Source of the DNA: Candidatus Spyradenecus sp.
Lineage (GTDB): Bacteria; Verrucomicrobiota; Verrucomicrobiia; Opitutales; UBA953
Assembly (NCBI GenBank): GCA_045535075.1
Contig: JAZSKX010000002.1
Coordinates: 27,216-91,215 of the forward strand
Length of the DNA stretch: 64,000 bases
Direction: 5' to 3'
Shown in pieces: positions 1 through 64,000 of the stretch. The notes below the pieces were generated by a model. The model was not told where the DNA came from. It ran no database searches and was given only the letters and a program-made list of their open reading frames with translations. The translations under genes were made by a program, and so were the position numbers. How positions within the stretch are numbered: position 1 is the first letter of the stretch; each line of letters begins with the position of its first letter.

Positions 1-630
1 CTCTATATCGCATTGCTCGGCGGCATCATCATTTCCGGACCTTTTATTCTCTACAAAGCGGCTCACTTCATCACCCCGGCGCTGACATTGCGGGAACGCC
101 ACCGGATTCTACCGGTTTGTATCGCGTCGACGATGCTCTTTGTCGCGGGAGCGCTACTCGCTTTTTTCAAGCTGGCTCCCGTTTCAATTGAGTTCATGTA
201 TTTTTTCTCAAATGAAATGGGCTTGCAGGTCAACTGGTTGGCGGCAGATTACTACGCCTTCATCGTCATCCTGGTACTTTTCGTCGGAGCAATTTTTGAA
301 TTTCCCCTCCTCGTCGTCGCATTGCAATACTTTGAAATTATTCCGACGAAATCACTTCTAAGCAAATGGCGCTGGGTTATCGCGGGGATTCTTATCGTCA
401 TCGCTTTCGTATCTCCGATCAGCGACCCGATTACACTTCTTGCGCTAACGGGACTACTTTTTCTTATTTTCCTCTGCGCCGTCTTCGTCGGAGATTTTCT
501 CCTAAGAAAAAAACTTGCAGCACGCGCAGCGGACGAACTTGCCTTCGAAGCCGAATTTTCGCCCGAAAAAACAAACACCGTTCCCGTCGCAGACGACGAA
601 AACGGCGATCTCAAAGTTTTAGATTCCTAA
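1..630 (+). CDS. tatC: Twin-arginine translocase subunit TatC (5' truncated by window edge)
   Basis: Multi-TM protein with FITPALTxRER, FEFP and SPISDP motifs typical of TatC; frame open from base 1. Confidence 0.85.
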   Translation, partial: LYIALLGGIIISGPFILYKAAHFITPALTLRERHRILPVCIASTMLFVAGALLAFFKLAPVSIEFMYFFSNEMGLQVNWLAADYYAFIVILVLFVGAIFEFPLLVVALQYFEIIPTKSLLSKWRWVIAGILIVIAFVSPISDPITLLALTGLLFLIFLCAVFVGDFLLRKKLAARAADELAFEAEFSPEKTNTVPVADDENGDLKVLDS

Positions 631-670
631 ACAATCGACTGTCGACAAGCTTCTCCGATACGGGAACAAA

Positions 671-702
671 AAAAGTGCCGCCTCAAACGAAGCGGCACTT
701 TT
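671..702. terminator. Bidirectional rho-independent terminator between convergent tatC and the FecR-like gene
   Basis: AAAAGTGCCGC...GCGGCACTTTT hairpin with A/T tails on both sides. Confidence 0.75.
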
Positions 703-716
703 CATCTGAAAATCAA

Positions 717-1433
717 TTAATACGAGGGAGAATTTTCAGGAATCGTGGCGAGGTTCAAGCCGTCGATTTCAACGTCTTCGCCGAACGGATCCGCATCTGC
801 CGGAGCCGAAGCTCCCGGCGTACGGAAATCTTCTTCACCTGCAGCCAAGAGGAGTTCCGCCTGCTTCTTTTCCGCGCGCGTCGCCGGACGCGGAGCCGGA
901 TTCGGATTATCTTTCGTCAGGAAAATCGTTTGTCCGGCAGCAAGCACGGAAACTTTTCCGTCCGTTCCGGCAACACGCCAACGTTCCTGCGTTGCGGTAA
1001 CGCTCATGGTAGATGCCGTAGCCGTAACGGTAACCGTTCCCTTAATTCCGGAAATCGTTCCGGCAGGGGTTTCGAGCGTAAAGCTTGAGCCTTTTTTCAA
1101 ATTCGCCTGAATTGTCGCCGCCCCACCGGAAAGCGAAGCAACCGTGGAAGTTACGCCGTCTTCTTCCGTCGAGCTTTTAACAGAAAAAGAAGCACCTTCG
1201 CCAAGGCCGACAACCGTTCCGTCCGGCAACGTGACGCGTGCAGAAGCACCTTTGGCAACTTTAACAGTGGCGCCGGCAGGAACCGTCGCGCCGGCTTTCA
1301 AGGCAGTCGCCTTCCCGTTGACAACAACGGTGACATTATCGCTGGCAACCGAAACCGTCATCGGAGCCGCAAACGCGACGGATGCGAGGAACAGCGGAGC
1401 CAGTACCAGTGTAGCCAATTTTGCTAGTTTCAT
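717..1433 (-). CDS. Secreted FecR-like domain protein
   Basis: Signal peptide ending AFA; beta-rich segment with DGTVVGLGEGAS and FTLETPAGTISGIKGT resembling the FecR domain. Confidence 0.6.
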   Translation of the reverse strand: MKLAKLATLVLAPLFLASVAFAAPMTVSVASDNVTVVVNGKATALKAGATVPAGATVKVAKGASARVTLPDGTVVGLGEGASFSVKSSTEEDGVTSTVASLSGGAATIQANLKKGSSFTLETPAGTISGIKGTVTVTATASTMSVTATQERWRVAGTDGKVSVLAAGQTIFLTKDNPNPAPRPATRAEKKQAELLLAAGEEDFRTPGASAPADADPFGEDVEIDGLNLATIPENSPSY

Positions 1434-1505
1434 AAGTAAATTTTCTTTAAGGGATTAAAACTGTGTCCGGATATTTTTAAGTAATATTCGCGAAATGCAA
1501 TACTT

Positions 1506-6225: not shown

Positions 6226-6253
6226 CGTTCCCGTGAAACAAATCACGGGAACG
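6226..6253 (-). terminator. Terminator formed by an inverted pair of the CGGGAACG motif, downstream of PEP-CTERM gene 1
   Basis: CGTTCCCGTGA-N6-TCACGGGAACG preceded by an A-run (U-tail on the minus strand). Confidence 0.75.
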
Positions 6254-7071: not shown

Positions 7072-7190
7072 GCGGCTTTTTAAGCGCTCTTGGAGGCGGT
7101 TTTATGCGCGGAAAGAGCCGTGAAATCGGCATTCACGAATCTTCTCCGTTGCGGGAACGACCGGCAGAGCGTAGCGTTTTCAAAAGAAAT

Positions 7191-10100
7191 ATGGGCGATA
7201 GCGCGACACAGCAGGCATTTGACATTTTGGACCTTGAGCGCCCCGGCGTCATTGAAGCGTCGGCGGGAACGGGAAAGACATATTCGATTGCCGAAATCTA
7301 TCTTGCCCTGCTCTGCGGGCACACACGCTACGCCCAAAATCCGCCGAAAGATTTTGATTTCGGGAGGAATCCGAATCCGCCTTCCGTGCGGGAAATTCTC
7401 GTCGTTACATTTACGGAAGCGGCAACGAACGAGCTGACCGAACGACTCCAAAAACGAATTCGCGAAGCCGTAAAAAAAGAGCTTTCGCCCGACGCGTCGG
7501 AAAAAGAAAAAAACGAACGCCGTCTGCTTCGCCTCGCCGACGCCGAATTTGACGAAGCGGCCGTTTCGACCATTCACGGATTTTGTATGCGCGTGTTGCG
7601 GGATTTCAGCTTTGAATGCGGCTTGCCGCCGGCGCTCGTTCCCGCAGAAAATCTCACGGAGGAAATGACGCGCTTTGCCGCACGATTCCGCACGCGGGAA
7701 GCGTTGCTCGGGAACAAGCGCATTCTCGAACTTTCGACGAATGACATACGTTCGATTATCGACAAACTTGCTAAAAATCCGGACATCGCAATCGCCGAAC
7801 CGGACAACGGCGACCGCTCAGACCCCGACTTTCACGTCGCGACCCGAGGGCTCAAAGCATGGCTTACCGAACGCAAGAAAATTGAACAACTCTCGTTCGA
7901 CGAAGTACTGCTTCGCTTGCGCGATGCCCTGCGGGAAAAACCGCAACTCGCCCGGAAAATCGCCGCACGCTACCGGGTTGCGCTTGTTGACGAATTTCAG
8001 GACACAGATCCGGTTCAATGGGAAATTTTCAATCTCATTTTCGTCAGACAAAAGCGCCCGTTTTTCTGTGTCGGCGATCCGAAGCAGGCGATTTATGAAT
8101 TTCGCGGCGGAGACATCCGCACGTACACGCAAGCCGTCGGTGAAATCCTTCGAAAGAACCGCGACAATCGCCTTCGCCTAATCACCAACTGGCGCTCCGA
8201 AGCGACAATGATTGCGGCGTTCAACGAGCTTTTCCGCGCCGATTCCCAAATTGAGCCTACAGCCCAAGGCGTTCCCGTAAGCGGCAATCTGAATTACCTT
8301 GATGCCGTTCCCGCGAAGCGGAAAGAGGACTCCGAAAAAAACGCTCCCGCGATTTTTCTTCGAACCGGATTTTCCGGAGCGATTGAGGGAGCTCGCGCGA
8401 AAGTTCGGGAACGACTTGTCGAAGATATTCAAATTTTAATTACGAAACAAAAAATTCCGCCGGAAGCAATTGCCGTGCTTACACGCAAAAACAACGAAGC
8501 ATTTGCAATTTTAAGAGAGCTGACGAAAAAAGGCGTTCCCGCCGTCATGAGCGCGACGGGCTCGGTGCTTGAAACGGAAGAAGCATCTGCGATCGGCGAA
8601 ATTCTCGACGCGATGCTCAATCCGAGCAGCACGTCCGCAATTCTTCGTGCGGCGGTTTGCGAATTTTTCGGTACTTCTTTTTTTGAATCACTCGCACAAA
8701 AAGGAAGCGGAGAAAACGAAGCGCTTTCGAAGTTGCGGGAACGCCTTTTTGAAGCGCAAAAAATCTGGGAGCAGCGCGATGTGCTTTCGGCGTTTTCATT
8801 GCTGGAAAAAACATATTCGTTCCGCGAAAATCTCGCGAAACTTTCCGAGGCTTCCCGACGACTTGCCAACGCGACGCACATTTTGGAAATTCTCCAAACC
8901 GAAGCCCACCAACGCCGCCTCGCGCCGCAAGCTCTTTTCAATCGTTTTTCGGAAATGCTGCGCTCGCCGAATCCCGACTCGGAAAAAGAAGCGCTGCGCA
9001 TTGATTCCGACGCTCCCGCCGTACAAATTACCACGCTCCACAAAAGCAAAGGGCTTCAATACGAAATCGTGTTTCTCCCGAGCTTGTGGGACATGCCGAT
9101 AAGCTCGGGCGGGAGCAAAGTCCGTTGCGTCCGTAGCCAAACACAAAGCGGCGACCGCCAAATACTGCTTCGGAAAAATGCCGCAATTCAACACGCGGAA
9201 ATCGAAGAAACCGCCCAAACGCACGCCTGCCTCAATTACGTCGCGTTTACGCGTGCAAAGAAAGCCTGCGTCGCCTACCACGCGAATGAAGCCACTTCTT
9301 ACGGGAAGAAAATCGAATCCTATTTTTCAAAAATCCTTTCCGCCGCCGGCATCTGCGGGAACGCAACCGGGAACGGCGAAGCGAAGCATTGGAAAATCCT
9401 TGCCGAAGACGACGCGCTCCCGGAAATTTTATTTCTCCGAGAAAAAAAATCGACGGCGCGCAACTCGCCGGACTTTCTGTTCCCGCAAAACAAACCGAAA
9501 AACGGTGCTTGGGGAATTTTCAGCTTTTCAAAAATTATCGACGACCACGAAACGCAAAACGGCAAACTCGAACCGGAAACCGACGACGCCGAAAAAATCA
9601 TCGACGGAACGATTCAAAAATCCGAGCTCTTCCAAGCTCCGGATTATTACGATCTCGCAGCCGGGAAAGAATTCGGGACTCTCGTTCACGCTATTTTCGA
9701 ACAAGTCGATTTTAAAACGCGAAATAATCTCGATGCTCTAATCGAATTTTACAGAGAGCGTTTTCCGCAATGGCTCGCCGACGACGCTTCCCGGGAAAAA
9801 ATCAGAAAAATGATCGACGAAACGCTTGAGCTTCCCATCGACGGCAAGTCCGCCAAACTCAGCCAAATCGATTCGACGCGCGATGCATTACGGGAACTTG
9901 AATTCTTATTCCACGCCAAAAAATCCGAAAATTTGTATTCGGAACTTAATGACGTTTTTTCTTCTTGGGGCGGAATTTACAAACGCACAGCCGAAATTCA
10001 TTGGGCGAGCGGAGACGCGGGAACGCTCAAAATAGAAGGACTGATGCACGGCTATATCGACTTGGTCGCAAGAACAAACGGGCGCTATTACATCGCAGAC

Positions 10101-10385
10101 TGGAAAACCAATCGTGTGATGAAAAAAGACGAAAGAGCCATGTCACGTAAAAATCTTGAAGACGAAATCGCGGAATGCGGCTACGCGCTTCAATGGGCGA
10201 TTTACGCCGTCGCCCTAAGAAAATTCCTGCGAAAAACACTGGGAGACGGCTATTCGACCGAGCGCAATTTCGGCGGAATCGCGTACTTCTTTGTGCGTTG
10301 GAACACGGTTTTCTTTGACAACTCCCTGGACGACGGCAAACTCGACGCGCTCGAAAATATTTTATCGGAAAGGAATTCGCGATGA
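7191..10385 (+). CDS. recB: Exodeoxyribonuclease V beta subunit RecB (UvrD helicase plus nuclease)
   Basis: EASAGTGKT, VTFTEAAT, LVDEFQDTD, GDPKQAIYEFRG, TLHKSKGL, C-terminal GYIDLV...IADWKT; start at ATG 7191. Confidence 0.9.
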   Translation: MGDSATQQAFDILDLERPGVIEASAGTGKTYSIAEIYLALLCGHTRYAQNPPKDFDFGRNPNPPSVREILVVTFTEAATNELTERLQKRIREAVKKELSPDASEKEKNERRLLRLADAEFDEAAVSTIHGFCMRVLRDFSFECGLPPALVPAENLTEEMTRFAARFRTREALLGNKRILELSTNDIRSIIDKLAKNPDIAIAEPDNGDRSDPDFHVATRGLKAWLTERKKIEQLSFDEVLLRLRDALREKPQLARKIAARYRVALVDEFQDTDPVQWEIFNLIFVRQKRPFFCVGDPKQAIYEFRGGDIRTYTQAVGEILRKNRDNRLRLITNWRSEATMIAAFNELFRADSQIEPTAQGVPVSGNLNYLDAVPAKRKEDSEKNAPAIFLRTGFSGAIEGARAKVRERLVEDIQILITKQKIPPEAIAVLTRKNNEAFAILRELTKKGVPAVMSATGSVLETEEASAIGEILDAMLNPSSTSAILRAAVCEFFGTSFFESLAQKGSGENEALSKLRERLFEAQKIWEQRDVLSAFSLLEKTYSFRENLAKLSEASRRLANATHILEILQTEAHQRRLAPQALFNRFSEMLRSPNPDSEKEALRIDSDAPAVQITTLHKSKGLQYEIVFLPSLWDMPISSGGSKVRCVRSQTQSGDRQILLRKNAAIQHAEIEETAQTHACLNYVAFTRAKKACVAYHANEATSYGKKIESYFSKILSAAGICGNATGNGEAKHWKILAEDDALPEILFLREKKSTARNSPDFLFPQNKPKNGAWGIFSFSKIIDDHETQNGKLEPETDDAEKIIDGTIQKSELFQAPDYYDLAAGKEFGTLVHAIFEQVDFKTRNNLDALIEFYRERFPQWLADDASREKIRKMIDETLELPIDGKSAKLSQIDSTRDALRELEFLFHAKKSENLYSELNDVFSSWGGIYKRTAEIHWASGDAGTLKIEGLMHGYIDLVARTNGRYYIADWKTNRVMKKDERAMSRKNLEDEIAECGYALQWAIYAVALRKFLRKTLGDGYSTERNFGGIAYFFVRWNTVFFDNSLDDGKLDALENILSERNSR

Positions 10386-12112
10386 CTCACCACGGCGACG
10401 GATTTGCCGGCAGCGAAGCACATTGGCTCGGCAGCGAAATTGAACTTCTTTCAAGCGACGCAGGATTTACGCCGAAACAAGCCGCGGAAATGCGCCGACT
10501 GACGGAAGCGCTCGCTAACGCCGTTTTTTCCGAGAAGGAAACATGCCTGCCGATTTCCGCCGCAGAAGACTTGGCGTTTCTCTGCGAATTGAGCAAAAAC
10601 ACAAATCCGATTATCTCCAGCGAGCCGAATGCCCGAACGCCGCTCATCCTAGATATCGAAACCGTAACAAACGCACCGACGCTCTATTTCCGAAAACATT
10701 TCGCTGAAGAATGCTTCATTGCGCGCTCCGTTCGCGCCGCCGCAAATGCCCCGGAAGCTCCGATTTCCCCGCTTCAGGAAAACATCATCGGCGCGGGAAC
10801 GAAAGACGGATTCGGATTCGCGCTCACCGACGAACAAAAAAACGCAGTCCGGGCAATTCTCCGGAGGCAATTCACAATTATTTCCGGCGGACCGGGAACC
10901 GGGAAAACCAGCCTGCTGCTCCGGGCTCTCATCGGAATTCTTGCCGAAAATCCCGAAGCCTCAATCGAAATTGCCGCTCCGACGGGAAAAGCGGCAAACC
11001 GTATCCAAGAATCCATTACAAAACAATTTTCGGAAATCGACGACGGAAAACTGATTGCGACAGCGACAAAAAACGTTCGGGAGAAAATTTCAAAAATCGT
11101 TCCCAAAACGCTTCACCGATTGCTGTCACTTTCTGCGGGAACGACGCGTCCGAAGCCGATTCTCGCCGACGTCGTCATCATCGACGAAGCCTCCATGATT
11201 TCGCAAAACCTGATGGCAACGTTATTAAGCGCCCTTCCCGCGCACGCGAAATTGATTTTGCTCGGCGACAAAAATCAGCTCGACTCCGTCCAACCCGGAC
11301 ACGTTTTCGGCGATTTTTATAACGCTCCCGCGCTATCGCGTTCCCGCGCATCGCTCGTTAAGAGCCATCGATTCAACGACGACAATTTCGTCGGACAACT
11401 CGCCGCCGCCGTCCTCGACGGCAAAAACGAAAAAATCCCGAACCTGCTTTCGCGTGCCCCGGAAAACACGACCGTCGAGTATTGCGACGAGGCAAGCGCG
11501 CGGGAGCAAATCGAGCGCGTACTTCATCTGTGCCTTCCCGCCGAACTGAAAAATCCTTCGCCCGACATCGACCCGAAAACGATTTTGCACGCGCTGGAAA
11601 GTTCCCGCGTACTCACACCGAGCACCGAAGGCGTTTTCGGCGTACATGCTCTCAACGCCGCCGCACAAAAGATCTTTGCGCCGGCATCCCGCGGCGAACA
11701 TTTTCACGGACGCCCGATTCTCGTCACGCAAAACGCGCCGGAATTTTCGCTTAGCAACGGAGACGTCGGACTCATTTTGCGCTCGCCGGAAAACTTCAAC
11801 TTTTATGCGTGGTTTCAGGACGGGAACGGAGAGGCCCGTTCAATTCCAGTCGTGCTTTTGCCCAAACACGAAACCGCCTACGCGATGACGATTCACAAGT
11901 CGCAAGGTTCGGAATTTTCCCGCCTCGGCATTTTCTTTCCGAAAAACACGCGCCCCGGATTCTACACGCGCCAGCTTCTTTACACGGCAATTACACGCTT
12001 TAAGGAAACGCCGCAGAGCAGACTTTGCTTCTGTTGCGATCCCGAATCCGTTGCAAGCGCCGTCAGCTCCGACGCACAATCGCACTCGCTCCTTCCCGCG
12101 CGCCTGAAATAA
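10382..12112 (+). CDS. recD: Exodeoxyribonuclease V alpha subunit RecD
   Basis: SGGPGTGKT, AAPTGKAA, IIDEASM, LGDKNQL, AMTIHKSQGSEF; ATGA overlap with recB. Confidence 0.92.
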   Translation: MTHHGDGFAGSEAHWLGSEIELLSSDAGFTPKQAAEMRRLTEALANAVFSEKETCLPISAAEDLAFLCELSKNTNPIISSEPNARTPLILDIETVTNAPTLYFRKHFAEECFIARSVRAAANAPEAPISPLQENIIGAGTKDGFGFALTDEQKNAVRAILRRQFTIISGGPGTGKTSLLLRALIGILAENPEASIEIAAPTGKAANRIQESITKQFSEIDDGKLIATATKNVREKISKIVPKTLHRLLSLSAGTTRPKPILADVVIIDEASMISQNLMATLLSALPAHAKLILLGDKNQLDSVQPGHVFGDFYNAPALSRSRASLVKSHRFNDDNFVGQLAAAVLDGKNEKIPNLLSRAPENTTVEYCDEASAREQIERVLHLCLPAELKNPSPDIDPKTILHALESSRVLTPSTEGVFGVHALNAAAQKIFAPASRGEHFHGRPILVTQNAPEFSLSNGDVGLILRSPENFNFYAWFQDGNGEARSIPVVLLPKHETAYAMTIHKSQGSEFSRLGIFFPKNTRPGFYTRQLLYTAITRFKETPQSRLCFCCDPESVASAVSSDAQSHSLLPARLK

Positions 12113-29857: not shown

Positions 29858-29887
29858 ACGTTCCCGCAGACTGCTCCGCGGGAACGT
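29858..29887 (-). terminator. Terminator formed by an inverted CGGGAACG pair, downstream of PEP-CTERM gene 2
   Basis: ACGTTCCCGC-N10-GCGGGAACGT preceded by an A-run. Confidence 0.75.
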
Positions 29888-34572: not shown

Positions 34573-34760
34573 CGTGGGTATTCCTAAAATTGAAACAACC
34601 ACTTTCAAGCCAATTCGTCTTCTTCAAAAATGTTCTTAAGATGTCGCTGGCGTGTTCATGCCGAACAATTCAGCCAAATAGACTTATCTTTTACAAGGGC
34701 GTTTAGCGCAATGTCTTCTTTCGACGATTTGTACAGAAGAAAATTGAATGATTTAGCTAG
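34573..34760 (-). pseudogene. Decayed 5' fragment of a RhuM-family gene
   Basis: Frameshifted pieces FNFLLYKSSKEDIALNALVKDKSIWL / AELFGMNTPA / HLKNIFEEDELA / VVVSILGIPT match the RhuM N-terminal pattern as I recall it. Confidence 0.7.
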
Positions 34761-34776
34761 ATTATTTTGTTCTACA

Positions 34777-36900: not shown

Positions 36901-36902
36901 AA

Positions 36903-37820: not shown

Positions 37821-37836
37821 ACGTTATACCTCTTTC

Positions 37837-38955
37837 TTAGTTAGATTCCAAACTGCCCCGAATCAGAATCGGGCAGATGTTTTTGATTTGTGATTTTAGT
37901 TGTTCGTTGATGCGTTTTCGTTCGGTGTAAACGTTGTAAATATCGACGATGGATTTTTGGACGTCCTTGTCCGGAATCGGGAGTTGTGTTTCGTAAAACC
38001 GATCTAAATCAAGATTAGACCGGATACTCGAATCACTCATAAACCACCCACGACGGTCGCTTTCTCTTCGGGAAAACCACATCAAAATGTATTCTTCGAG
38101 AACAGTGTCGTTCTTGCATTCAAACACCGTGTAGGCCGGAGAAATAATGATGGGCATTCCCGCCTTATTCAAAGCGATTCTGATACATTCATCCCGTCCC
38201 GTTTGCATTCCGGAAAAAGCAAACTGATTTTTTTCGACGAGTTTATACCTTGTTAAATCTACTCCGTTGGTGTCTGCGACAGACGGCATGAACTGTTTTG
38301 CAATATTTATCCCATGCGCAATTGTGATTTCGCCGCTCTCATTACGAATATCAACTTCTTTCAGTAATTCGCGGACAGGTGTTGTTTCTGATTTATGTTT
38401 AATTTCGTCAATAAAGGCATCGATCCCAAGTTTCAAATCTTCCAAGCCGCGTTCGTAGCATTGCTGATTGGCGACCATCGCTTTGTAGATATCGACGTAT
38501 TTTTGCTGCGTGAAAAGAGGCGGAAGATCGATTTCCATTTCGCACAATGCATTCCATGTGAAAACTTCTGTAGAGCTTCCCCAAGAACGGAAACACGCTT
38601 CTCGATCCCATTCCACGCGGTTGAAGTGCAAAAACAAATATTCAGGGGAAACAACCTCTTTCACTTCTTTTTTTACTCTAAAACCAATGTTGTTCCAAGA
38701 AATGATGAAGCTTTTTCCGGTACTATTGTATCCAAAACCGATATGCTTTCCATGAGTACGGGGATTAAAAACAAATTCGGTAGGATGGATAACTAAGAAT
38801 TTTTCCAAATCAGCAGTTGATACGTTAGCTTTTGTTGGAATGATTTGCTTTGTTATGGTCATTCCTTTCACATCGTTCACTCCGAACGAATTATTTTTGT
38901 TCGTTTCGGTTGTAAGTTCTATTAGCTGACCAAGTTTATATCTACTCAATGCCAT
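37837..38955 (-). CDS. hsdS: Type I RM specificity subunit S
   Basis: Two TRD-like halves each followed by a conserved helix (LPPLFTQQKYVDIY / LPIPDKDVQKSIVDIY); overlaps the hsdM stop; start at ATG 38955. Confidence 0.85.
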   Translation of the reverse strand: MALSRYKLGQLIELTTETNKNNSFGVNDVKGMTITKQIIPTKANVSTADLEKFLVIHPTEFVFNPRTHGKHIGFGYNSTGKSFIISWNNIGFRVKKEVKEVVSPEYLFLHFNRVEWDREACFRSWGSSTEVFTWNALCEMEIDLPPLFTQQKYVDIYKAMVANQQCYERGLEDLKLGIDAFIDEIKHKSETTPVRELLKEVDIRNESGEITIAHGINIAKQFMPSVADTNGVDLTRYKLVEKNQFAFSGMQTGRDECIRIALNKAGMPIIISPAYTVFECKNDTVLEEYILMWFSRRESDRRGWFMSDSSIRSNLDLDRFYETQLPIPDKDVQKSIVDIYNVYTERKRINEQLKSQIKNICPILIRGSLESN

Positions 38956-40555
38956 ATCCGATTCCTTTGAATGCGCCTGCGAGCATTTTTTGAGACTGTT
39001 TTTCTTGAGCCATGAGTTCCCGCATTTCTTTTTGGATGCGAGCCATTTCTGCGGGAAAATCGATTTCCAAGTCGTGGTCGATGAACTCGATGTATTTGCT
39101 GGGAACGAGGCTCCAGCCTTGCGCCTCGATTTCCCTGATGCCGACGCTGCGATAGAGCTCGGGAACGGCATACGCGTTCCCGTCCGTTCCCGCGCTTTGC
39201 CAAGTGTGGTAGATGTCGGCGGCTCGTCGGATTTGGGCGGCATCTAAAAGCACTTTTTTCTTTCCTTCGTTTTTCACGGGATTATCCGTCCAAGTGCGCA
39301 GGTCCATAAAGAGAATTTCGCCTTCGCGGTTGCGCAGACTGCGCCCGTGGTATTTCCCGCCTTTTTTGTTTTGGTTCAAAATCCAGAGGGTAACGCTGAT
39401 GTCCGTTGTGATAAAGAGTTCCCGCGGGAGGATAATGATGGCTTCCACTTTGTCGTTTTGAATCAGCTTTTTTCGGATTTCCACGGTGTCGCTGTCGCCG
39501 AGCGCACCGTTCGCAAGCAAGAATCCGGCAACGCCGTCCAACGGCTTCAAGTGGGAAAGCATGTGCAAAATCCAAGCATAGTTGGCATTGCTTTCGGGCG
39601 GCGTGGCGTAGTTTGCCCAGCGAGAATCGTTTTTCAGGTTTTCATCATACCAGCCTTTGAGATTAAAAGGCGGGTTTGCCATGATGTAGTTGAAGTAGAG
39701 CCCTTTGTGCAGATCGTGCGTAAAGGTGGAATCGCTTTCGCCGCCGAGGTTGTGGCTGATCCCGCGCAGGGCGAGGTTCATTTTAGCGAGGCGATAAGTC
39801 GCCGCCTCTTTTTCCTGCCCGTAAACATTGATGCGGCTGATGTCGCCGCGCTTTTCTCTGATGAGGTCGGTGCTTTGGACAAACATACCGCCCGATCCGC
39901 AACAGGGATCGTAAAGCGTGCCGTCAAAAGGCTCAATCATGGAGGCGATGAGCTGGACGACATCGTGCGGCGTGTAATATTCGCCCTCTTCTTTGGTCGC
40001 GTTGACGGCAAATTCTTTGAGGAAGTATTCGTAAACCCGCCCGATAAGGTCTTTTTCTTCGCCGAATGCCTTGTGGCTGATTTTGTTGACCTCGTCGACG
40101 ATTTGTTTGATGTCGTTGGCGGCAAGGTTGCGCGTAGTGAACGTGCCTTCCACGAAGCAACCTTTCAGCTGGGCACTGCCGGTCGCGATGCTGTGCAGAG
40201 CGGTATCGAGGGCGACGTTCAGTTTGGGTGCGGGAGTGTTAATAATCGTGGACCAACGCGCCTCTGCGGGAAGATTATAGGTCCCGTCCGTAAAAGTGGC
40301 ATCGTCGAAAAATGCCGCGAAGATTTCTTCATCGTCCGGGTCAAGACCTTGAGCGATTAGGTCTTCGCGTAGCTTCTTGATCCCATCTTCAAATTTTTCG
40401 CCGATAAAGCGCAAGAACACGAGCGTCAGCATCATGTCGCGCTTTTCAAAAAACGATCCGGAATTGCGGGCTTTGCGCAGGATATCCCGACACTTGAACA
40501 GAATCGCGTCTAAATTGATTTTATCGTCAGTCTTTTCCTTCGTTGCCTTTGCCAT
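38942..40555 (-). CDS. hsdM: Type I RM N6-adenine methyltransferase subunit M
   Basis: GEYYTP, YDPCCGSGGM, YGQE, MANPPFN. Confidence 0.95.
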   Translation of the reverse strand: MAKATKEKTDDKINLDAILFKCRDILRKARNSGSFFEKRDMMLTLVFLRFIGEKFEDGIKKLREDLIAQGLDPDDEEIFAAFFDDATFTDGTYNLPAEARWSTIINTPAPKLNVALDTALHSIATGSAQLKGCFVEGTFTTRNLAANDIKQIVDEVNKISHKAFGEEKDLIGRVYEYFLKEFAVNATKEEGEYYTPHDVVQLIASMIEPFDGTLYDPCCGSGGMFVQSTDLIREKRGDISRINVYGQEKEAATYRLAKMNLALRGISHNLGGESDSTFTHDLHKGLYFNYIMANPPFNLKGWYDENLKNDSRWANYATPPESNANYAWILHMLSHLKPLDGVAGFLLANGALGDSDTVEIRKKLIQNDKVEAIIILPRELFITTDISVTLWILNQNKKGGKYHGRSLRNREGEILFMDLRTWTDNPVKNEGKKKVLLDAAQIRRAADIYHTWQSAGTDGNAYAVPELYRSVGIREIEAQGWSLVPSKYIEFIDHDLEIDFPAEMARIQKEMRELMAQEKQSQKMLAGAFKGIGYGIE

Positions 40556-40832
40556 ATTGTGCCCGCCTTCAGACGTATTGTGTTTGGGTAGGATAAGTCT
40601 CCGTTTTGCGTTAAGAAGATTGAAGTGGTTTCACTTTGCTAAAATGACAACAAATTCCGCGCGGGAACGCAAAAGCGAACTTGCAGAAAACAGTCCCGGC
40701 AAAAGCAAAAAATCCTCAAAAAGCGCTCTCCGAATCACAGTAAGAAAAAAATATAAAAAACAACAAAAAGTAAGTTTTTTATTTTAAAAATAGAAAAATA
40801 TAAGTATTTTATATAAAAAATAAGGATTTTCT

Positions 40833-42332
40833 ATGACGCCGATCGGATACGCTTTTTTAATCAAACACTTTGACCTGAAAGTTCTGAGCCCCTACAAAAC
40901 GTCGTATTTGACATCGAAGCAGGTTCGAATGAAAGAATGCTTTGCCTCCGGCGAAATAGAATACTTCCCTTCACGCTTCAAGCTCGAAGAGAAATGGCAA
41001 GATCACTTGCGCTTCGCGATAAAGCACGAAGGAATTAACTTAAATATTTTAAAAGCTCTCTTTGAAAAACTTGATGAATCAGAGCTTAAAGCGCTCATTT
41101 GCGAACAACGGGTTAGCGTCATTTTGCGAAGAATATGGTTTTTCTATGAATTTTTAACCGGACGGCGTTTGGAAATTCCGGCTCTGAAAACCGGTGTATA
41201 CGATTATGCGCTTCCTCCGGAAGACTATTTTACAATAGACAAAGAACACGCTACACGAGCTCCACGCCAGCGCCTTTTTTGCAATCTCCCCGGCAATGCG
41301 GCGTTTTGCCCGATTGTTCATTTAACAAAAAAAATCAAATCTGCATTAAATACGGATTTCGGAGCGAAAATCTCTGCTGTTCTTTCAAAATATCCGAACG
41401 AGCTGATTTATAGGGCGAACGCTTTTCTGTATTTACGGGAAACGAAATCGTCTTTCGCGATCGAGCAACAAACGCCCTCTCAACAGCGGACAACAGTTTT
41501 CATGGAAGTTCTCAAACAAGCGGGAACAAAAGAACTGAATACACAGGCTCTCGTTCAATTGCAGAATTGTATCGTTGATGCACGGTATGCGGAATCCGGC
41601 TTTCGTCAAGATCAAGTCTACGTCGGGCAAACTTTAGCCCCGGGGCACGAATTAGTGCACTTTATCGGAGTTAAGCCTAACGACCTAAACTCTTTCATGG
41701 AGGCATTTTTTGAAATCCTGAAAAGGCTCACAGCCTCGAGCTGTAATCCGGTCATTACGGCTGCCGTTCTTTCATTTGCCTTCGTTTTCATCCACCCGTT
41801 CGATGACGGGAACGGACGGCTCCATCGTTATTTGATGCATCATATTTTAGCGATGATGAAATTTTCTCCGGAAAATCTTATTTTTCCGGTATCCGCCGTT
41901 CTGTATAAGAATCCGACATCTTACGATCGGATGCTCGAGAGCTTCTCCAAACGTTTGATGCCACTGATAAATTACGAGTTGGATACCCTCGGAGTAATGA
42001 CTGTAGAAAACGAAACGGCAGACTTTTATCGTTACATCAATTATACGGAAATAGTTGAGCTTTTCTTTGAAATCATAGAGAAAACCCTGGAAACAGAACT
42101 CGTTCCCGAACTGGATTATCTGAAGTCGTGGGAACAAGCCAGAACTCAAATGCGCAATATCGTCGATATGCCGGAAAAAAAAATAAGGCTATTTATTACT
42201 TTTGTTCAGCAAAATAATGGTTCCTTTCCCAAAAATCGCCGAAAAATGTTTGAAGAGCTGAGTGATGCGGAAATAAGTTCCCTTACCCGAGTTATCAACA
42301 AAAACATTTTATCCCGAAACTCCAAAAAGTAA
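40833..42332 (+). CDS. Fic-domain protein
   Basis: Fic motif HPFDDGNGRLHR; also LRETKSSFAIE. Confidence 0.92.
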   Translation: MTPIGYAFLIKHFDLKVLSPYKTSYLTSKQVRMKECFASGEIEYFPSRFKLEEKWQDHLRFAIKHEGINLNILKALFEKLDESELKALICEQRVSVILRRIWFFYEFLTGRRLEIPALKTGVYDYALPPEDYFTIDKEHATRAPRQRLFCNLPGNAAFCPIVHLTKKIKSALNTDFGAKISAVLSKYPNELIYRANAFLYLRETKSSFAIEQQTPSQQRTTVFMEVLKQAGTKELNTQALVQLQNCIVDARYAESGFRQDQVYVGQTLAPGHELVHFIGVKPNDLNSFMEAFFEILKRLTASSCNPVITAAVLSFAFVFIHPFDDGNGRLHRYLMHHILAMMKFSPENLIFPVSAVLYKNPTSYDRMLESFSKRLMPLINYELDTLGVMTVENETADFYRYINYTEIVELFFEIIEKTLETELVPELDYLKSWEQARTQMRNIVDMPEKKIRLFITFVQQNNGSFPKNRRKMFEELSDAEISSLTRVINKNILSRNSKK

Positions 42333-42864: not shown

Positions 42865-45516
42865 TTAGCCCAGGATTTTGCGGAGGACGTATTGGAGAAT
42901 GCCGCCGTTGGCGAGGTAATGCGATTCCGCGAGCGTGTCGATGCGGCAAAGCAAGGTCGTCTTGGCGACTTCGCCGTTGGCGCGGCGAATCACGAGCGCG
43001 ACGTTTTGCTTCGGCTTCACGGGATTTTCCAAGCCCTCGATGTCGAAAGTTTCCGTGCCGTCGAGCCCGAGCGATTCCGCGCTTTCGCCGTTTGTAAATT
43101 CGAGCGGGAGCACGCCCATGCCAATCAGGTTCGAGCGGTGGATGCGTTCAAAGCTCTGCGCGACGACTGCGCGCACGCCGAGAAGCGCGGCGCCCTTCGC
43201 CGCCCAGTCGCGGGAAGAGCCCATGCCGTAATCGACTCCGGCGAAGACGATGAGCGGCGTTCCCGCCTTTTTGTAGGCTTCGCTGGCTTCGAAAATCGTA
43301 GTCAGCGTTCCCGCGGGCTGAAGTTTGGTAAAGCCGCCTTCTTTGCCGTCCGCCATCTTGTTTTTGATGCGCACATTGGCAAAGGTGCCGCGCACCATGA
43401 TGCGGTCGTTCCCGCGACGCGAGCCGTAGGTATTGAATTTTTCGCGGGGAATGCCGCGTTCGGTGAGGTATTTCCCGGCGGGCGTTTCGGGCGCGAAGGC
43501 GCCGGCGGGAGAAATGTGGTCGGTTGTCACGGAGTCGCCGAGGATGGCGAGCGGGCGCATTCCCGAGAGTTTCGCCGGCGGCGGGAGCGTCATGCCGAAG
43601 CCGTCAAAATACGGCGGGAACTGGACGTAGGTTGAGTCGTCGCGCCAGCCGAAGAGCGCGCCCGTGGTTGCGGGAACGGTTTTCCATTCTGCCGTTGCAT
43701 CATCGAACGAAGCGTAGCGCTTGGCGAACATTTCGGGTTTGATGCCGGCGGCGATGAGCGCATCGATTTCCGCCTGTTTCGGCCAAATGTCTTTGAGGTA
43801 AACGGGTTGCCCGTTCGTTCCCGTGCCGAGCGGTTCGTTTTCCAAATCGATATCGATGCGACCCGCGAGCGCGAAGGCGACGACGAGCGGCGGCGACATG
43901 AGGAAATTTGATTTGATGAGCGGATGAATGCGCGCTTCGAAATTGCGGTTGCCGGAAAGCACACTCGCCGTAATGAGTTTGCCGTCGCGAATCGCGGTCT
44001 CGATTTCGGGCGCGAGCGGACCGGAATTGCCGATACAGGTCGCGCAGCCGTAACCGACGAGATTGAAGCCGAGTTTGTCCAAATACGGCGTCAAGCCCGC
44101 CGCGTTTAAATAATCCGTAACGACGCGGGAACCCGGCGCGAGCGAGGTTTTCACATACGCGGGAACGCGCAAACCTTTTTCCACGGCGCGTTTCGCGACC
44201 AAGCCGGCGGCGATGAGCACGCTCGGATTCGACGTGTTCGTGCAGCTCGTAATCGCGGCGATGACGACGGAGCCGTCGCGCAGCGTTCCCGCCTCGGTTG
44301 CCGCGCCTTTCGTTTCTTCGCGGAATTTGTCGAACGCGTTTTTCACGTTTCCGAGTTCGATGCGATCCTGCGGGCGTTTCGGCCCGGCAACGGAACGCGT
44401 AATCGTCGAAAGATCGAGCTCGATGACTTTCGTGTAGTTGATTTCGCCCGCTTTCGGCATGCCGAAAAGCCCCTGCGCTTGGAGATAATCGCGGACGACG
44501 GCGACTTTCTTTTCGTCGCGCCCGGTGAGGCGTAGGTAGTCGAGCGTTTTTTCGTCAACCGGGAAAAAGCCCATCGTCGCGCCGTATTCCGGAGCCATGT
44601 TGGCAACGGTCGCGCGATCGGCGAGCGAGAGCGTTGCCGCGCCTTCGCCGAAAAATTCGACAAATTTGCCGACGACCTTCGCCGCGCGGAGAATTTCCGT
44701 CACGCGGAGCGCAAGATCCGTGGCGAGCACGCCTTCCGGGAGCGTTCCCGTGAGGTGCACGCCGATAACTTCCGGCGTCTGGAAGCAAACCGGCTGTCCG
44801 AGCATTCCCGCTTCCGCCTCGATGCCGCCGACGCCCCAGCCGACGACGCCGATGCCATTGACCATTGTCGTGTGCGAGTCCGTTCCGACGACGGAATCCG
44901 GGTAGAAAACCGTTCCCGCGGGCGTTTCTTTTTCAAAAACAACACGCGCGAGATATTCCAAATTCACTTGGTGGCAAATCCCGACGGCGGGCGGCACGAC
45001 GGAAAACGTTTTGAACGCGCCCTGCCCCCACTTGAGCAATTCGTAGCGCTCCGTGTTGCGGGAAAAATCCTTTTCGATATTTTTGCGAAATGCATCCGGC
45101 GTTCCCGCGTAGTCGATTTGCACGGAGTGGTCGACGACCATATCCATCGGCACGAGCGGCTCGATGAGCGCGGGATCGCGTCCGAGCTTGGCGACGGCAT
45201 CGCGCATGGCGGCGAGATCGACGAGGAGCGCAACGCCGGTTAAATCCTGCAAAAGCACGCGCGCGACCGTGAACGGAATTTCCGTGTCGGCGGGCTTTGC
45301 GGCGTTCCAGTTGGCAAGCGCGCGAACGTCGTTTTCCGTAATCAGCGTGCCGTCGCAGTTGCGAAGCACGCTTTCAAGGACGACGCGGAGGCAGACGGGC
45401 ATTTTGGAAACTTGCCCGATTCCCGCCTGTTCAAGCGCGGGAACGCTGTAGTAAAAACCTTTTTTGCCGGCTGCCGGGCAGTTAAATTCGCGAAGCGTCT
45501 GGAAAGGATTGTTCAT
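42865..45516 (-). CDS. acnA: Aconitate hydratase AcnA
   Basis: [55 protein letters not shown]; start at ATG 45516. Confidence 0.97.
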
Positions 45517-45977
45517 AATTGGGGGGCAATCATAGAAAAACACAGGCGTTCCCGCGAGAAATTTCCACGGAAACGCATTCTCAAAAAAAGAACCGCGAAC
45601 AAACACGAATTTTCTCAAATGATCTTCATTTGCGGAATTTGCGAAAACGAGCAGTTCTGAAATCTTTTTTATCTTTCTCCCTATTGAATCAATAGATTAT
45701 TTAGCACAATACTGCTTCCCGCTATCCGCCAACTTTTTCAACTCATGAACACACATTTTTCGCCCTCCCCGCCGCACAAGTAACCGTTCCCACGGGAACA
45801 CAAAACAGCGCAGTCGGATTTTCTTTCCGTTTATCGCGGATTTTTACATGATTTCGGCTCTGCCGCGTTCGGAAACCGCAAAGAAAATCGTTGCGCTTAT
45901 GTTTTCTCCCGCCGGGCAGGAAATCTTCGAGAAAACCGGATACTTTTCCCAGCCTTAAGGCTGTTATAGCGAAACAA

Positions 45978-46014
45978 AAAACCGTTCCCGCGAAACATTC
46001 ACGGGAACGGTTTT
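45978..46014 (-). terminator. Terminator formed by an inverted CGGGAACG pair after trxA
   Basis: AAAACCGTTCCCGCGAA-ACA-TTCACGGGAACGGTTTT. Confidence 0.8.
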
Positions 46015-53756: not shown

Positions 53757-54902
53757 ATGAAGATTTCTCCCGCTCAAGCCTCACTCATTCTCAACGCACT
53801 TTCCGGAATCGGCGCCGTTGCCTGCCGTAAATTTGCCGACGCTTTTGACGGCTCGTTGCCCGAAATTTTTTACGCTTCCCGAAAGCAACTCGCCGCCATT
53901 CGCGGAATCGGAGAAAATCTCGCGGAAAAAATCGTCTCCTGGGAAAGTGAATTCGACTTAGAAAAAGAGGAAGAAAAAATGGCGAAGTTCGGCTTTGATT
54001 TCATTCCGTTTTTCGACTCGCGCTACCCTGCAATGCTCAAGGAAATTCCGGATGCGCCCATCGGCATTTACGTTTGCGGGAACGCCGACGCCCTGCAAAC
54101 GCGCCGAAGCATCGCCGTCGTCGGAACACGCAAAGCCTCGCCTTACGGCTCGTCAATGGCGCAAAAAATCGCACGGGAACTCGCCGGCGCGCGCTGGAGC
54201 ATCATTAGCGGGCTCGCACGCGGAATCGACACCGTCGCCCATAGAGGCGCGCTCGACGGGAACGGCACAACCGTCGCCGTGCTCGGCTGCGGGCTCGATA
54301 TCGTCTACCCGCCGGAAAATCTCGAGCTTTACCGGGAAATTGCGTCTCGCGGCGGCGCCGTAATCAGCGAATTTCGACTCGGCCGCTCTGCGGACAAACG
54401 CTCATTTCCCAAACGCAATCGCATTATCGCCGGACTTTCTGCGGGAATGCTCGTCGTCGAATCCGACGAAAAAGGCGGCTCCATGCTTTCCGCCGGATTT
54501 GCCGCCGATTACGGACGAACCGTTTTTGCGCTTCCCGGACGCGTTGATCAAGCCGGTTCCCGCGGTTGCCACAAACTTATCCGCGAAGGCGCGACGCTCA
54601 TCACCAACACCGCCGAAATCATCGAAGAAATGGAAAGCGTCGCCTCGCAACCGAGCCTCGCTCTTGAGTTCGGAGAAATCCCGAATTCCGTTCCCGTAAG
54701 CGCGCAAGACAAAGCGCCGCCCGAACTCTCCGGCGACGAAGCCAAAATTTTTGCAACCCTCGCCGCCGGAGACGCTCTTTCGCCTGATGCGATTGCGGAA
54801 AAAACCGCCCTTCCCGCAGCCGCCATTTTATCCAAACTCCTCCTCTTGGAGCTCGACGGCTTAGTTACCCGAAAAACAGACGGCACCTACGAAAAAAAAT
54901 AA
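53757..54902 (+). CDS. dprA: DNA-processing protein DprA
   Basis: AVVGTRKAS.YG, SGLARGID..AH, FPKRNRIIAGLS, FALPG, LIREGA. Confidence 0.96.
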   Translation: MKISPAQASLILNALSGIGAVACRKFADAFDGSLPEIFYASRKQLAAIRGIGENLAEKIVSWESEFDLEKEEEKMAKFGFDFIPFFDSRYPAMLKEIPDAPIGIYVCGNADALQTRRSIAVVGTRKASPYGSSMAQKIARELAGARWSIISGLARGIDTVAHRGALDGNGTTVAVLGCGLDIVYPPENLELYREIASRGGAVISEFRLGRSADKRSFPKRNRIIAGLSAGMLVVESDEKGGSMLSAGFAADYGRTVFALPGRVDQAGSRGCHKLIREGATLITNTAEIIEEMESVASQPSLALEFGEIPNSVPVSAQDKAPPELSGDEAKIFATLAAGDALSPDAIAEKTALPAAAILSKLLLLELDGLVTRKTDGTYEKK

Positions 54903-54917: not shown

Positions 54918-54945
54918 CGTTCCCGAAAAACCAATCGCGGGAACG
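54918..54945. terminator. Inverted CGGGAACG-pair hairpin after dprA
   Basis: CGTTCCCG-N12-CGGGAACG; a second hairpin follows (AAAGCCTGCAAA...TTTGCAGGCTTT). Confidence 0.6.
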
Positions 54946-61875: not shown

Positions 61876-61978
61876 TTGTGTTCTACGCATGGCAATGTCG
61901 CTCTTTCAGAGCTCAATGATTTTTCCCTTCGTTCCGTAGGGTTTCACCCTACGCTGACCAATTTCGCCCCGTTGGGGC
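61859..61978. repeat. REP/BIME-like cluster of short palindromes
   Basis: GCCCTGAAAGGGC, GCTCTTTCAGAGC, CGTAGGGTTTCACCCTACG, GCCCCGTTGGGGC. Confidence 0.65.
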
Positions 61979-62025
61979 TTTTGACACACAGAATCTTTTT
62001 TCAAAAACAAAATTAAAAATTCATT

Positions 62026-62916
62026 ATGAAAACTTTATTAAAATCTATACTTTTTGCTGTAATCACGGCGTTTGGCGTTCCCGCGTTTGCCGCGCCGGAA
62101 AACCACGAAGAATTTGCACAGCAATACATGCCGGAATCGCAAGCCGTGTTTGAACGTTTCCGCAAAGACTGCGCAGAAACACAAAAACTTCGCGAATCGC
62201 TCGCAGAGGATCTTCGCGTAATGAATCGTGTGCCTGATGAAGATGCCGGCTACTGCTCGCTTTCCGAAAAAATCACGGAACTCGAAAAACGCGAAGCCGA
62301 GTGGGCGAACACAATCAAAGACGCTTTTTTCAAGCACACGGCGGGGATGGCTACGTCCGAAAAACTCAACGATGCGGATGCCGAACTCGCGAAGAAATCC
62401 ATCGCGTGGGGGCAAAACTTTCTAGGTGGAATTCTTAAAAAAACAATAGCGAATTATGGCTCGCCAACAATGATGAAAATTCCCGGAAGCAGTCATTCAA
62501 TCGCAAAGTCTGTTGTTCCACTTACACTTTACAGGGCAATTACAGGAAGAAAGCCGTCGCAAGCATGGAAGGAAAACTCTCAATGGGTAGGCAGCGTCTC
62601 ATGGTACGAAGCAGTAGAATTTTGTAAAAAATTGACAACGCGAGATCGCGCCCTAGGACGAATTTCAAAAAATCAGGAATATCAACTTCCCGAGCTATAC
62701 GAGCTGCATCGCGCCGTAGAGACGGGGTTAGTTTCAGCGAACGGCGCAGAGTGGACAAGTACGGATCCGGATTACAGGGACACTGGCGTTCTTTATACAA
62801 GGTCATGGACGCCTGGGTTTGAGAAGCCTCATCAAAAGAAGGTGCACGATTGTCTATTCCGAGTCATCCTTGCTCCCACAAGCTTTTTCTCAATTTTTCA
62901 ACAAAGCCTTCAATAA
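62026..62916 (+). CDS. Secreted protein with a helical N-domain and a degenerate FGE/SUMF1-like C-domain
   Basis: Signal peptide ending AFA; VSWYEAVEFCKKLT...YQLP...AEWT...FRVIL. Confidence 0.65.
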   Translation: MKTLLKSILFAVITAFGVPAFAAPENHEEFAQQYMPESQAVFERFRKDCAETQKLRESLAEDLRVMNRVPDEDAGYCSLSEKITELEKREAEWANTIKDAFFKHTAGMATSEKLNDADAELAKKSIAWGQNFLGGILKKTIANYGSPTMMKIPGSSHSIAKSVVPLTLYRAITGRKPSQAWKENSQWVGSVSWYEAVEFCKKLTTRDRALGRISKNQEYQLPELYELHRAVETGLVSANGAEWTSTDPDYRDTGVLYTRSWTPGFEKPHQKKVHDCLFRVILAPTSFFSIFQQSLQ

Positions 62917-62924
62917 CGCAAACT

Positions 62925-63581
62925 ATGGCAGCATACAATTCTTTCATAACGAAACATTACGATATAGACTTCAACGATTTAAAAAATAAGAAGTTCTTAT
63001 CGTTTTTTCCGTGGGTTGGAGTAAGGTATTTAGAAAACCGTGTCGTCGTTGTCGGTAAATGGCATTTCGGAAACGATAATGCGTCCCATGAAGAATATAC
63101 GCGAGAAAGAGTTGCAGATAACGGGATACAGAAAAACGATGAAAATCCGTATAAACGTGCGACAAAAGTTCTCTTAGGAAGGGACCTTTCTACGATTGCG
63201 GATCGGGAAGCACTTTGGTCTCAACTCGCGTTTTTCAACTTAAAAAAAGGACAATATCCTGGGAACGATGTAAAAAATCACTTACTGGTAGAAGACGATT
63301 TTTATACGTTCGTAGAAATCGCAAAAATCATGCTTCCTAGATTCTTGTTGTTTGTTGATGTTTAGCTCGAAAACTACGGCAGCAAAGATTTTCTAGAAAA
63401 ATCGGGTGTCTCGGTGACTCCCATTAATTCTTTTGATGAAAAAGGAACGAACATAAAGGTCGAAATGGCACTCCTTTCGACAAGAACATGGAGTGCAATT
63501 TCAGTATTTACGAAGCTCTGTAACCAACCTTTCGTAGGGAATATCGATTCTGTAGAACGTTATATGCCTAAATTCTTTTGA
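62925..63581 (+). pseudogene. AT-rich gene (possibly UDG-like fold) interrupted by an in-frame TAG at 63363-63365
   Basis: FFPWVG..Y...VVVVG and W..LAFFN pattern; the same frame stays open 71 codons past the TAG to TGA at 63579. Confidence 0.5.
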
Positions 63582-64000
63582 TAGAGCCACAGGAAACAAA
63601 CGTTCCTCCGTGACGAAATCCGCAGCACGGGAACGTTTTTTCTAAATAAAATCTGTGGCCATCTGTTTTTATTCGTAGGTGAAAGGTTCCTATTCCATCG
63701 CGCTGCAGGAACTCCGACAGAGGGAACGGAGTCGTTTATGCGGCGCGTTTTTGTTGTTCGCGCCCCCCAAGCTCCGCTCGCGTGAAGTCTCTCCGAGGCA
63801 TTAGACACACCTCGTAAGGAGCATCCGAATCTTCGTCGTTTTGGGGCTTAATTTTGTTTCCGCGTAATTATCTACGTGGGAACGTTTTTTAGTCATTCAC
63901 TCCACACTCTTCCTTTTTTTTCCCATTTCTCCCGGTTGCTCCTTTTCAAGCCAGAGGCTTTTAATTCGTCCTTGCTTTTTTTAAATGCGAGGAGCCCGTT

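Follow-up and report, generated by a model that had tools for sequence, protein, structure and literature searches.

A hyper-abundant octamer as a candidate DNA uptake sequence in a genus of gut Opitutales

The octamer in the window and in its genome

The stretch of DNA analysed here, called the window below, comprises 64 kb of a Candidatus Spyradenecus sp. assembly (GCA_045535075.1, contig JAZSKX010000002.1, positions 27,216 to 91,215), and our subject is a short word, CGGGAACG, that is dispersed along it. The window also holds RecB-like and RecD-like genes, a defence island, an aconitase gene, dprA, and five sites at which two copies of the word form an inverted pair (Table 1). A preliminary description of this DNA had singled out the 7-mer GGGAACG as a candidate DNA uptake sequence and had noted dprA, which is indeed present. 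Its manual count of about 28 copies of GGGAACG or the complement in the first 10 kb, 14 on each strand, became 27 on recount (13 on + and 14 on -), and all eight of its example positions were recovered. Across the 64 kb there are 177 copies of the 7-mer or its complement, whereas 100 shuffles that preserved dinucleotide composition gave 13.03 +/- 3.13 and never more than 21. The word in full is the 8-mer CGGGAACG, which differs from its reverse complement, CGTTCCCG, and is therefore non-palindromic.

Table 1. The octamer, its inverted pairs and other features of the window
Feature	Position	Strand	Evidence or detail
CGGGAACG, dispersed copies (n=166)	91..63635	78 on +, 88 on -	word count in window
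Inverted pair CGTTCCCG-N12-CGGGAACG, A-tract before, terminator-like	6226..6253		predicted hairpin -19.6 kcal/mol
RecB/AddA-like helicase-nuclease and RecD-like helicase	7104..12112	+	ordinary motif density
Inverted pair, 3' end of PEP-CTERM gene (29925-30659, -)	29859..29886		predicted hairpin -21.1 kcal/mol
Inverted pair adjoining hsdR 3' end (30857-34402, -)	30791..30816		predicted hairpin -21.0 kcal/mol
Defence island, low-GC and motif-poor: hsdR, Hachiman pair, hsdS, hsdM	30857..42332	-	density and family matches
Hachiman pair in defence island	34777-36900 (helicase), 36903-37820 (HamA)		
Fic gene in defence island	40833-42332	+	
Aconitase gene	42865..45618	-	12 motif copies
Inverted pair, A-tract upstream and T-tract downstream, bidirectional-terminator-like	45983..46009		predicted hairpin -23.5 kcal/mol
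dprA	53757..54902	+	PF02481, E 1.6e-77; TIGR00732, 243 bits (cut-off 191)
Inverted pair 16 bases downstream of dprA	54918..54945		predicted hairpin -16.2 kcal/mol

The genome that holds the window (G000; 1,949,087 bases in 18 contigs, 99.45% complete) contains 5159 copies of CGGGAACG, or 2.65 per kb, which places the word first among all 8-mers. Base composition predicts 68.8 copies, approximately 75 times fewer. Crude calling of the longest open reading frames (ORFs) gave a set of 1509 that spans 90.6% of the genome and contains 4463 copies, about ninefold more than the 503 +/- 21 obtained from 10 synonymous-codon shuffles within each gene; since codon usage has been shaped by the motif, this null errs on the generous side. 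The overrepresentation survives both kinds of shuffle; it is real, and much stronger than the window alone could show.

A logo of all copies in G000 gave the extended consensus Y-Y-R-CGGGAACG-C. Immediately 5' of the core, 63% of copies have G and 25% have A, in agreement with the G/A proposed for this position earlier; positions -3 and -2 are C or T, with A in just 14% and 6% of copies, and position +1 is C in 47%. Outside -3 to +1 the flanks carry 0.00-0.03 bits of information, so that the unit is at most about 12 bases long and is not a fragment of a longer repeat. Single-base variants at positions 1, 2 and 5 of the core occur at roughly 0-2 times expectation and those at position 3 at 3-4 times, while positions 4, 6 and 8 each tolerate one change (608, 857 and 800 copies). 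The moderately enriched near-variants are CGGAAACG (608), CGGCAACG (572), CGGGAGCG (857) and CGGGAACA (800), and the unevenness of these counts by position indicates a sequence requirement that is graded along the word.

The motif is read in different frames, as had been noticed in the window: in G000 all six are occupied (sense 420/1453/756, antisense 353/301/1170), and a further 706 copies are intergenic. Although 86% of copies lie within ORFs, the density is higher in intergenic DNA (3.86 versus 2.52 per kb). With strands told apart by the GC skew of each of 88 20-kb windows, the G-rich strand has 2550 copies (54.7%) and the C-rich strand 2114, with 363 versus 328 for intergenic copies; by our arithmetic, a GC skew of about 0.06 alone predicts roughly 56% for a word with four G and two C. 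The strand bias is thus unlike the polarity of Chi or of the FtsK-orienting polar sequences (KOPS), and no strong leading-strand polarity was seen. The sole strongly skewed 20-kb stretch of G000 (9 versus 66 copies) is a local peptide-repeat effect of a giant gene of 4791 codons (contig C5:125844-140217, - strand), where all of the roughly 60 copies read along the coding strand, often at intervals that are multiples of 3.

Spacing of the copies is near exponential overall, with a coefficient of variation (CV) of 1.10 and 18 gaps longer than 3 kb where 1.65 were expected. In native DNA, with pairs collapsed and gaps above 2.5 kb left out, the copies are spread a little more evenly than chance would place them (CV 0.86), with 492 gaps of 800-2500 bp instead of the 660 expected.

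Close neighbours are arranged in a highly selective manner. Within 25 bases, the arrangement CGTTCCCG...CGGGAACG occurs 167 times, the opposite inverted arrangement 21 times and the two direct arrangements 37 and 47 times, and start-to-start distances peak sharply at 20. Allowing loops of 0-20 bases gives 171 pairs of the first arrangement, of which 127 are intergenic, for the most part following a gene's 3' end (45 between convergent, 77 between co-directional and 5 between divergent neighbours). An A-tract before the pair, a T-tract after it, or both, accompany 140 of the 171 (both in 66), compared with a tract in 1 of 26 pairs of the opposite arrangement. The hairpins predicted for the five pairs of the window range from -16 to -23.5 kcal/mol. 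Because the motif disfavours A at -2 and -3, a T-tract could follow only its 3' side; if so, the one-sided pairing would mean that the same flank rule operates in terminators as in genes. In Neisseriaceae and Pasteurellaceae, according to a 2025 preprint, the inverted repeats of the DNA uptake sequence (DUS) and the uptake signal sequence (USS) lie mostly in terminators (10.1101/2025.10.24.684340).

Distribution across genomes and acquired DNA

The motif is a property of one genus. The 10-mer GCGGGAACGC occurs 1614 times in G000, where the same word reversed, used as a control, occurs 8 times, and it is found 138-3301 times in all 18 other species of the genus (G001-G018). Other genera of the family and order, sampled with 22 genomes, have 0-49 copies, no more than controls. 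An even sample of the phylum (301 genomes, 148 genera) gave the same picture, in that only its two members of the motif genus stand out and the other 299 genomes have at most 96 copies. Sister genera, for which 26-60 kb of each of six genomes were sampled, revealed no hyper-abundant 8-mer of their own; the top word of G024 (GGAGGAAA) looks like a ribosome-binding site.

A scan for the terminator-type pair in one genome per species of all prokaryotes returned at least 116 loci. Among the matches listed, records with several matches were all labelled Opitutales, Verrucomicrobia or Candidatus Spyradosoma (classed under Opitutia, Verrucomicrobiota), or bore an odd label together with the counts of a genus member, and single chance matches were scattered over high-GC phyla. 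An occurrence outside the genus was rejected for the records labelled Enterobacteriaceae, Sphaerochaetaceae and Spyradenecus, which share their 10-mer counts with five genus members and are probably those same assemblies under other labels. The labels of records L009, L018, L022 and L028 (Enterobacteriaceae, Sphaerochaetaceae, Candidatus Spyradenecus) look wrong.

Dialects in related genomes, a possibility raised by the preliminary description, did not appear within the genus: core and flanks are identical in all its species despite a GC content of 50-65%, and the species with few copies of the 10-mer carry the same word at lower density. The octamer is present at 2.2-4.1 per kb in 14 of the 18 other species, whereas G001, G002 and G013 have 0.62-0.68 per kb and G014 has 0.29 per kb, four- to ninefold fewer copies. 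In G014 a different word, GGGTTGGTGGTG, was considered and proved to form locally clustered arrays rather than a dispersed motif; loci L132-L136, L272 and L273 of this species are clustered GGGTTGGTGGTG-like arrays on both strands, often near contig ends, with GGTTGGTGGT occurring 60 times in 93 kb. These arrays are a repeat family distinct from the motif, and among the species sampled only G014 has them.

A tree of PilT and PilB2 places G001, G002 and G013 as the sister group of G000 (support 100/99) and G014 beside two high-density species, so that low density occurs at least twice inside a high-density genus. In a 649.6-kb alignment of G000 with G013 (79.6% identity), 350 motif sites are common, 1252 are specific to G000 and 97 to G013; that is, 78% of the aligned copies of G013 are also in G000, and few were made by G013. 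Only 76 of 1775 motif sites touch a gap, the remaining 1699 being ungapped, and the unshared sites differ by one substitution in 603 cases, by two in 395 and by more in the others. A five-way alignment of 34.9 kb, with the high-density G018 as outgroup, contained 15 sites specific to G000, 25 specific to G018 and 3 specific to the three low-density species. In the same alignment, 11 sites are common to G000 and G018 and missing in all three low-density species, compared with 3 of the reverse pattern (present in G018 and a low-density species, missing in G000).

These aligned-site comparisons show that copies of the motif arise and decay by point substitution, with creation proceeding in some lineages but feeble or halted in others. 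Low density may reflect loss, or high density may have been attained in parallel, since parallel gain at near-motif sites is plausible.

Within G000, the word is unevenly shared between native and foreign DNA. The island region of the window (30801-42400) has 0.95 copies per kb, and its interior (34403-39100, 38% GC) only 0.21 per kb, against 2.86 per kb in the flank at 1-30800 and 3.10 per kb at 42401-64000. G000 contains 27 motif-free gaps of at least 2.5 kb, and we annotated the 20 stretches that cover those outside the window. Their contents include a reverse transcriptase with a T5orf172 protein, a 1617-aa DEAD/UvrD helicase, a C5 methylase together with an NgoBV-type endonuclease and an AAA_15 ATPase, a type I S subunit with an Abi_C protein, a TIR protein and a PD-(D/E)XK protein, but also radical-SAM, polymorphic-membrane-protein and glycosyltransferase genes, as well as rpoB and ribosomal-protein genes. 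A Mu-like prophage (gp27, terminase, Mu portal, D12 methylase; contig C16:191869-221091) lies in a region that is largely a series of motif-free gaps of 3.2-4.8 kb. With prophage and defence islands occupying motif-free gaps, CGGGAACG is depleted in recently acquired DNA. In 19 viral contigs that carry the terminator pair the density is 0.10-0.63 per kb, well below host level, which is a weak comparison for contigs of unassigned host.

Six of the motif-free stretches were scanned against Rfam and matched no family, and ribosomal RNA was rejected as the cause of a GC-rich motif-free gap for want of an Rfam match. One stretch of 4.7 kb (contig C8:27053-31779, 59% GC) is motif-free and has neither a Pfam nor an Rfam match.

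Proposed uptake of self-DNA and the alternatives

Our data are consistent with CGGGAACG being a mark of self-DNA that is actively maintained across the genus, and its most likely role is that of a DNA uptake sequence. We lean, with some reserve, towards an independently evolved candidate of the DUS/USS kind. By every computable genomic measure the element looks DUS/USS-like, yet it is a member of neither family. Terminator pairs, depletion in foreign DNA and conservation throughout the genus all fit the uptake reading of the preliminary description, which is supported in part; neither ComEA nor a ComP homologue was found.

The resemblance to the DUS of Neisseriaceae, which is read by the minor pilin ComP, extends from the word to its setting. 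In both cases a short non-palindromic word is repeated hundreds to thousands of times, within genes and in either orientation, forms inverted-pair terminators, is common to related species and is missing from foreign DNA, in genomes that encode a type IV pilus, ComEC and DprA. The DUS is GCCGTCTGAA (10.1101/2025.10.24.684340) or one of its dialects. Unlike it, CGGGAACG is an unrelated word with a core of 8 bp rather than 10-12, in a different phylum; it is denser (2.65 per kb in G000 and up to about 4 per kb in relatives), has no dialects within the genus, and stands in a genome in which neither a ComP_DUS domain nor ComEA was found. With the USS of Pasteurellaceae the motif shares the same genomic hallmarks, and the graded tolerance along its core recalls the strong and weak positions of the USS. 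G000 also has a four-gene pilin cluster, and the predicted receptor of the USS is a minor pilin, ComN (10.1101/2025.06.16.659825). In contrast to the USS, the word is again unrelated, and its isolated copies lack AT-rich flanking segments. The earlier statement that the motif matches neither DUS nor USS thus stands, on the different word, the lack of ComP and the other phylum.

Much of the machinery expected of a transformable cell is encoded in G000. Pilus genes comprise two PilB/GspE-type ATPases, PilC, a PilT-family ATPase (435 bits, cut-off 319), and a PilM-like protein and a secretin of families named after Akkermansia Amuc_1101 and Amuc_1098. A pilin cluster beside ruvX and recJ contains three N-methyl pilin genes and one unassigned ORF, and two further pilin-like genes bring the pilin-like total to six. 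ComEC, DprA and ComM are also present. Competence machinery was recovered in its pilus, secretin, pilin, ComEC, DprA and ComM components, but not in ComEA or ComP, and with only a weak ComF. The PilM-like/secretin operon (contig C12:6713-15380, L141) belongs to the families named for the Akkermansia Amuc_1098-1101 pilus-like cluster. Behind it lie two paralogous ORFs of 311 and 243 aa that share about 50% identity and match no family; the 243-aa ORF is 96-97% identical in G001, G002 and G013.

From these parts we propose a model in which some component of the type IV pilus competence apparatus, at the surface or in the periplasm, would bind double-stranded DNA bearing the motif, and PilT-driven retraction would draw that DNA through the secretin. 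ComEC would then pass one strand into the cell, where DprA would load the recombinase onto it, and the incoming strand would replace the homologous chromosomal stretch. If alleles with the motif are taken up more often, near-motif sites would be converted over time by molecular drive. Such a drive would act by point substitution wherever the protein tolerates it and would build terminator stems out of inverted pairs, while newly acquired DNA and the most constrained genes would remain motif-free. Uptake bias, receptor and drive are what we infer from the genomic pattern.

Several observations weigh against this interpretation. No receptor for the motif was found, and the core of the word, at only 8 bp, is shorter than the DUS and USS cores. 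The search for ComP_DUS (PF16732) in G000 gave no match at E <= 1, and the best match there to ComEA (TIGR00426/PF12836) is a Tex-like 805-aa frame below cut-off. ComF is a weak match (80 bits against a cut-off of 233), and in ComEC Pfam shows the Competence domain only; moreover, ComEC is present in all 41 genomes of the order that were searched and so does not discriminate. In the 650 kb aligned between G000 and G013 there is no recent recombination tract longer than 775 bp at >=93% identity. Among open-access papers and bioRxiv, none of the listed matches to the motif words dealt with an uptake signal, and there was no report of transformation, competence or uptake sequences for Verrucomicrobia, Opitutales, Akkermansia or Spyradosoma.

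The low-density species add a further difficulty. G001, G002 and G013 keep all 16 proteins that were checked (PilB x2, PilT, PilC, the PilM-like protein, the secretin, the six pilin-like proteins, the two operon ORFs, ComEC and DprA), with DprA whole in G002 and represented in G001 and G013 by its C-terminal third only within the compared loci. The sole stop within these alignments is in PilB1, and it is also found in the high-density G018. G014 has ComEC; its other uptake genes were compared in part, and those checked are kept. Loss of uptake genes was thus not seen for the 16 proteins in G001, G002 and G013 or for the part compared in G014, and gene loss among the known uptake genes does not explain low density, including the four-fold difference of G001, G002 and G013. 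We regard this as neutral to mildly unfavourable for uptake.

Intact pilus genes at low motif density would be explained by an intracellular drive of the type suggested by the cyanobacterial highly iterated palindrome (HIP1, GCGATCGC), in which a conserved modification or mismatch-correction activity biases repair towards the perfect word and uptake plays no part. This is a possible but unlikely alternative. HIP1 is likewise an octamer of comparable density whose function has long been debated; recent work links it to transformation and gene transfer (10.1101/2024.09.10.611283, PMC13756078) and describes an octamer of similar abundance that is recognised by methylases (PMC13756078). The substitution origin of the copies, their sharp specificity, their depletion in acquired DNA and their gain and decay by lineage fit such a drive as well as they fit uptake. 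However, HIP1 is palindromic and has conserved methylases, whereas CGGGAACG is not palindromic and neither methylase family tested is conserved: C5 methylases (PF00145) occur in 10 of the 19 genomes of the genus and are missing from eight high-density species, PF01555 methylases occur in 16 of 19 and are missing from G000, G004 and G006, and the methylases of G000 sit in motif-free islands or prophage. A drive by a conserved C5 (PF00145) or N4/N6 (PF01555) methylase, the two families surveyed, was rejected on this patchy distribution, as was Vsr-type repair, with Vsr in just 1 of 19 genomes. The low density of the viral contigs with the terminator pair (0.10-0.63 per kb) and the largely motif-free state of the prophage also speak against this alternative. 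Much less probable is a Chi-like signal, by which a RecBCD/AddAB-type enzyme would recognise the motif and DNA bearing it would be spared and recombined, driving the motif up. The word is G-rich and 8 bp long, as known Chi sites are, the window contains RecB-like and RecD-like genes, and stimulation of recombination from the donor side could in principle drive a motif. Set against this are the lack of real polarity, since the excess of G and the GC skew suffice to account for the strand shares, and the use of inverted pairs, paired terminator stems not being a Chi trait; the skew of known Chi and KOPS words is much stronger and their enrichment much lower, and identity with either was rejected on polarity (54.7%).

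We give little credence to the motif as the binding site of an abundant genus-specific protein, for nucleoid organisation or the marking of self-DNA, with its sites kept by ordinary selection. Even or slightly under-dispersed spacing, and presence in all native DNA but not in foreign DNA, would suit such a role, but thousands of individually selected sites in coding frames would impose a heavy load, no candidate protein was found, and we know of no precedent for an exact 8-mer held at 75 times expectation by site-by-site selection. Even taken together, a Chi-like and a DNA-binding role have a small probability. That the pattern stems from codon usage, from a peptide motif or from the copying of a small mobile repeat is scarcely credible. 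A repeated peptide does contribute in the 4791-aa gene, with its roughly 60 copies, but this effect is local, and as a general cause an artefact of codons or peptides was rejected on the codon shuffles (4463 observed, 503 expected) and on the occupation of six frames and of intergenic DNA. Between genes, some copies form hairpins, as do repetitive extragenic palindromic sequences (REP), bacterial interspersed mosaic elements (BIME) and miniature inverted-repeat transposable elements (MITE); unlike these, 86% of the copies lie within ORFs, have no conserved flanks and arose by substitution rather than insertion. A longer mobile repeat, which would have undermined the original proposal, was likewise rejected: flank information is close to zero, and 76 of 1775 aligned sites touch a gap, the unshared ones among the rest differing by substitutions.

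Returning to uptake as the favoured reading, its consequences would be considerable. Uptake sequences are treated as known from just two families, Neisseriaceae and Pasteurellaceae, in a 2025 preprint (10.1101/2025.10.24.684340). Opinion is evenly balanced, in our judgement, on whether CGGGAACG represents a third independent system, the first outside the Proteobacteria, with a receptor unrelated to ComP and the highest density known, in a largely uncultured genus of gut Opitutales. If it does, self-specific uptake would have evolved repeatedly, with an independent origin in another phylum, and natural competence would be predicted in gut Verrucomicrobiota. A tag of 8-12 bases on constructs could then render these organisms genetically tractable, and the word would serve as a compositional marker separating native from acquired DNA in genomes and metagenome bins. 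Sister lineages with a weakened or silent drive would be a natural experiment for finding the receptor; under either mechanism, uptake or intracellular drive, low-density species with intact pilus genes offer a comparative route to the receptor or driver.

Possible gene exchange around the defence island

The block hsdR-hsdS-hsdM-aconitase (window 30857-45791) is 90-98% identical to its counterparts in G007, G010, G011 and G017, members of the other main clade, in which the rest of the 17 kb tested is just 71-76% identical to G000. For three species the block with the aconitase gene reaches 96-97% identity, and the aconitase alone is also highly similar in G016. The contrast with neighbouring genes points to a defence island and a core gene having recently moved together between species, in what is a single instance. 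Neither the Hachiman pair (34777-37820) nor the Fic gene is present in the copies of the block in G007, G010, G011 and G017.

The Mu-like prophage region of G000 also contains an ORF with an ADP-ribosyltransferase domain and a gene for a YadA-head repeat protein. Between the Fic and aconitase genes of the window, a stretch of about 190 bp (42549-42739) has many copies in G010, G011 and G017 at 77-83% identity, and may be a small mobile repeat. The aconitase gene of G007 (L148) contains two in-frame TGA codons within its match to query residues 10-917.

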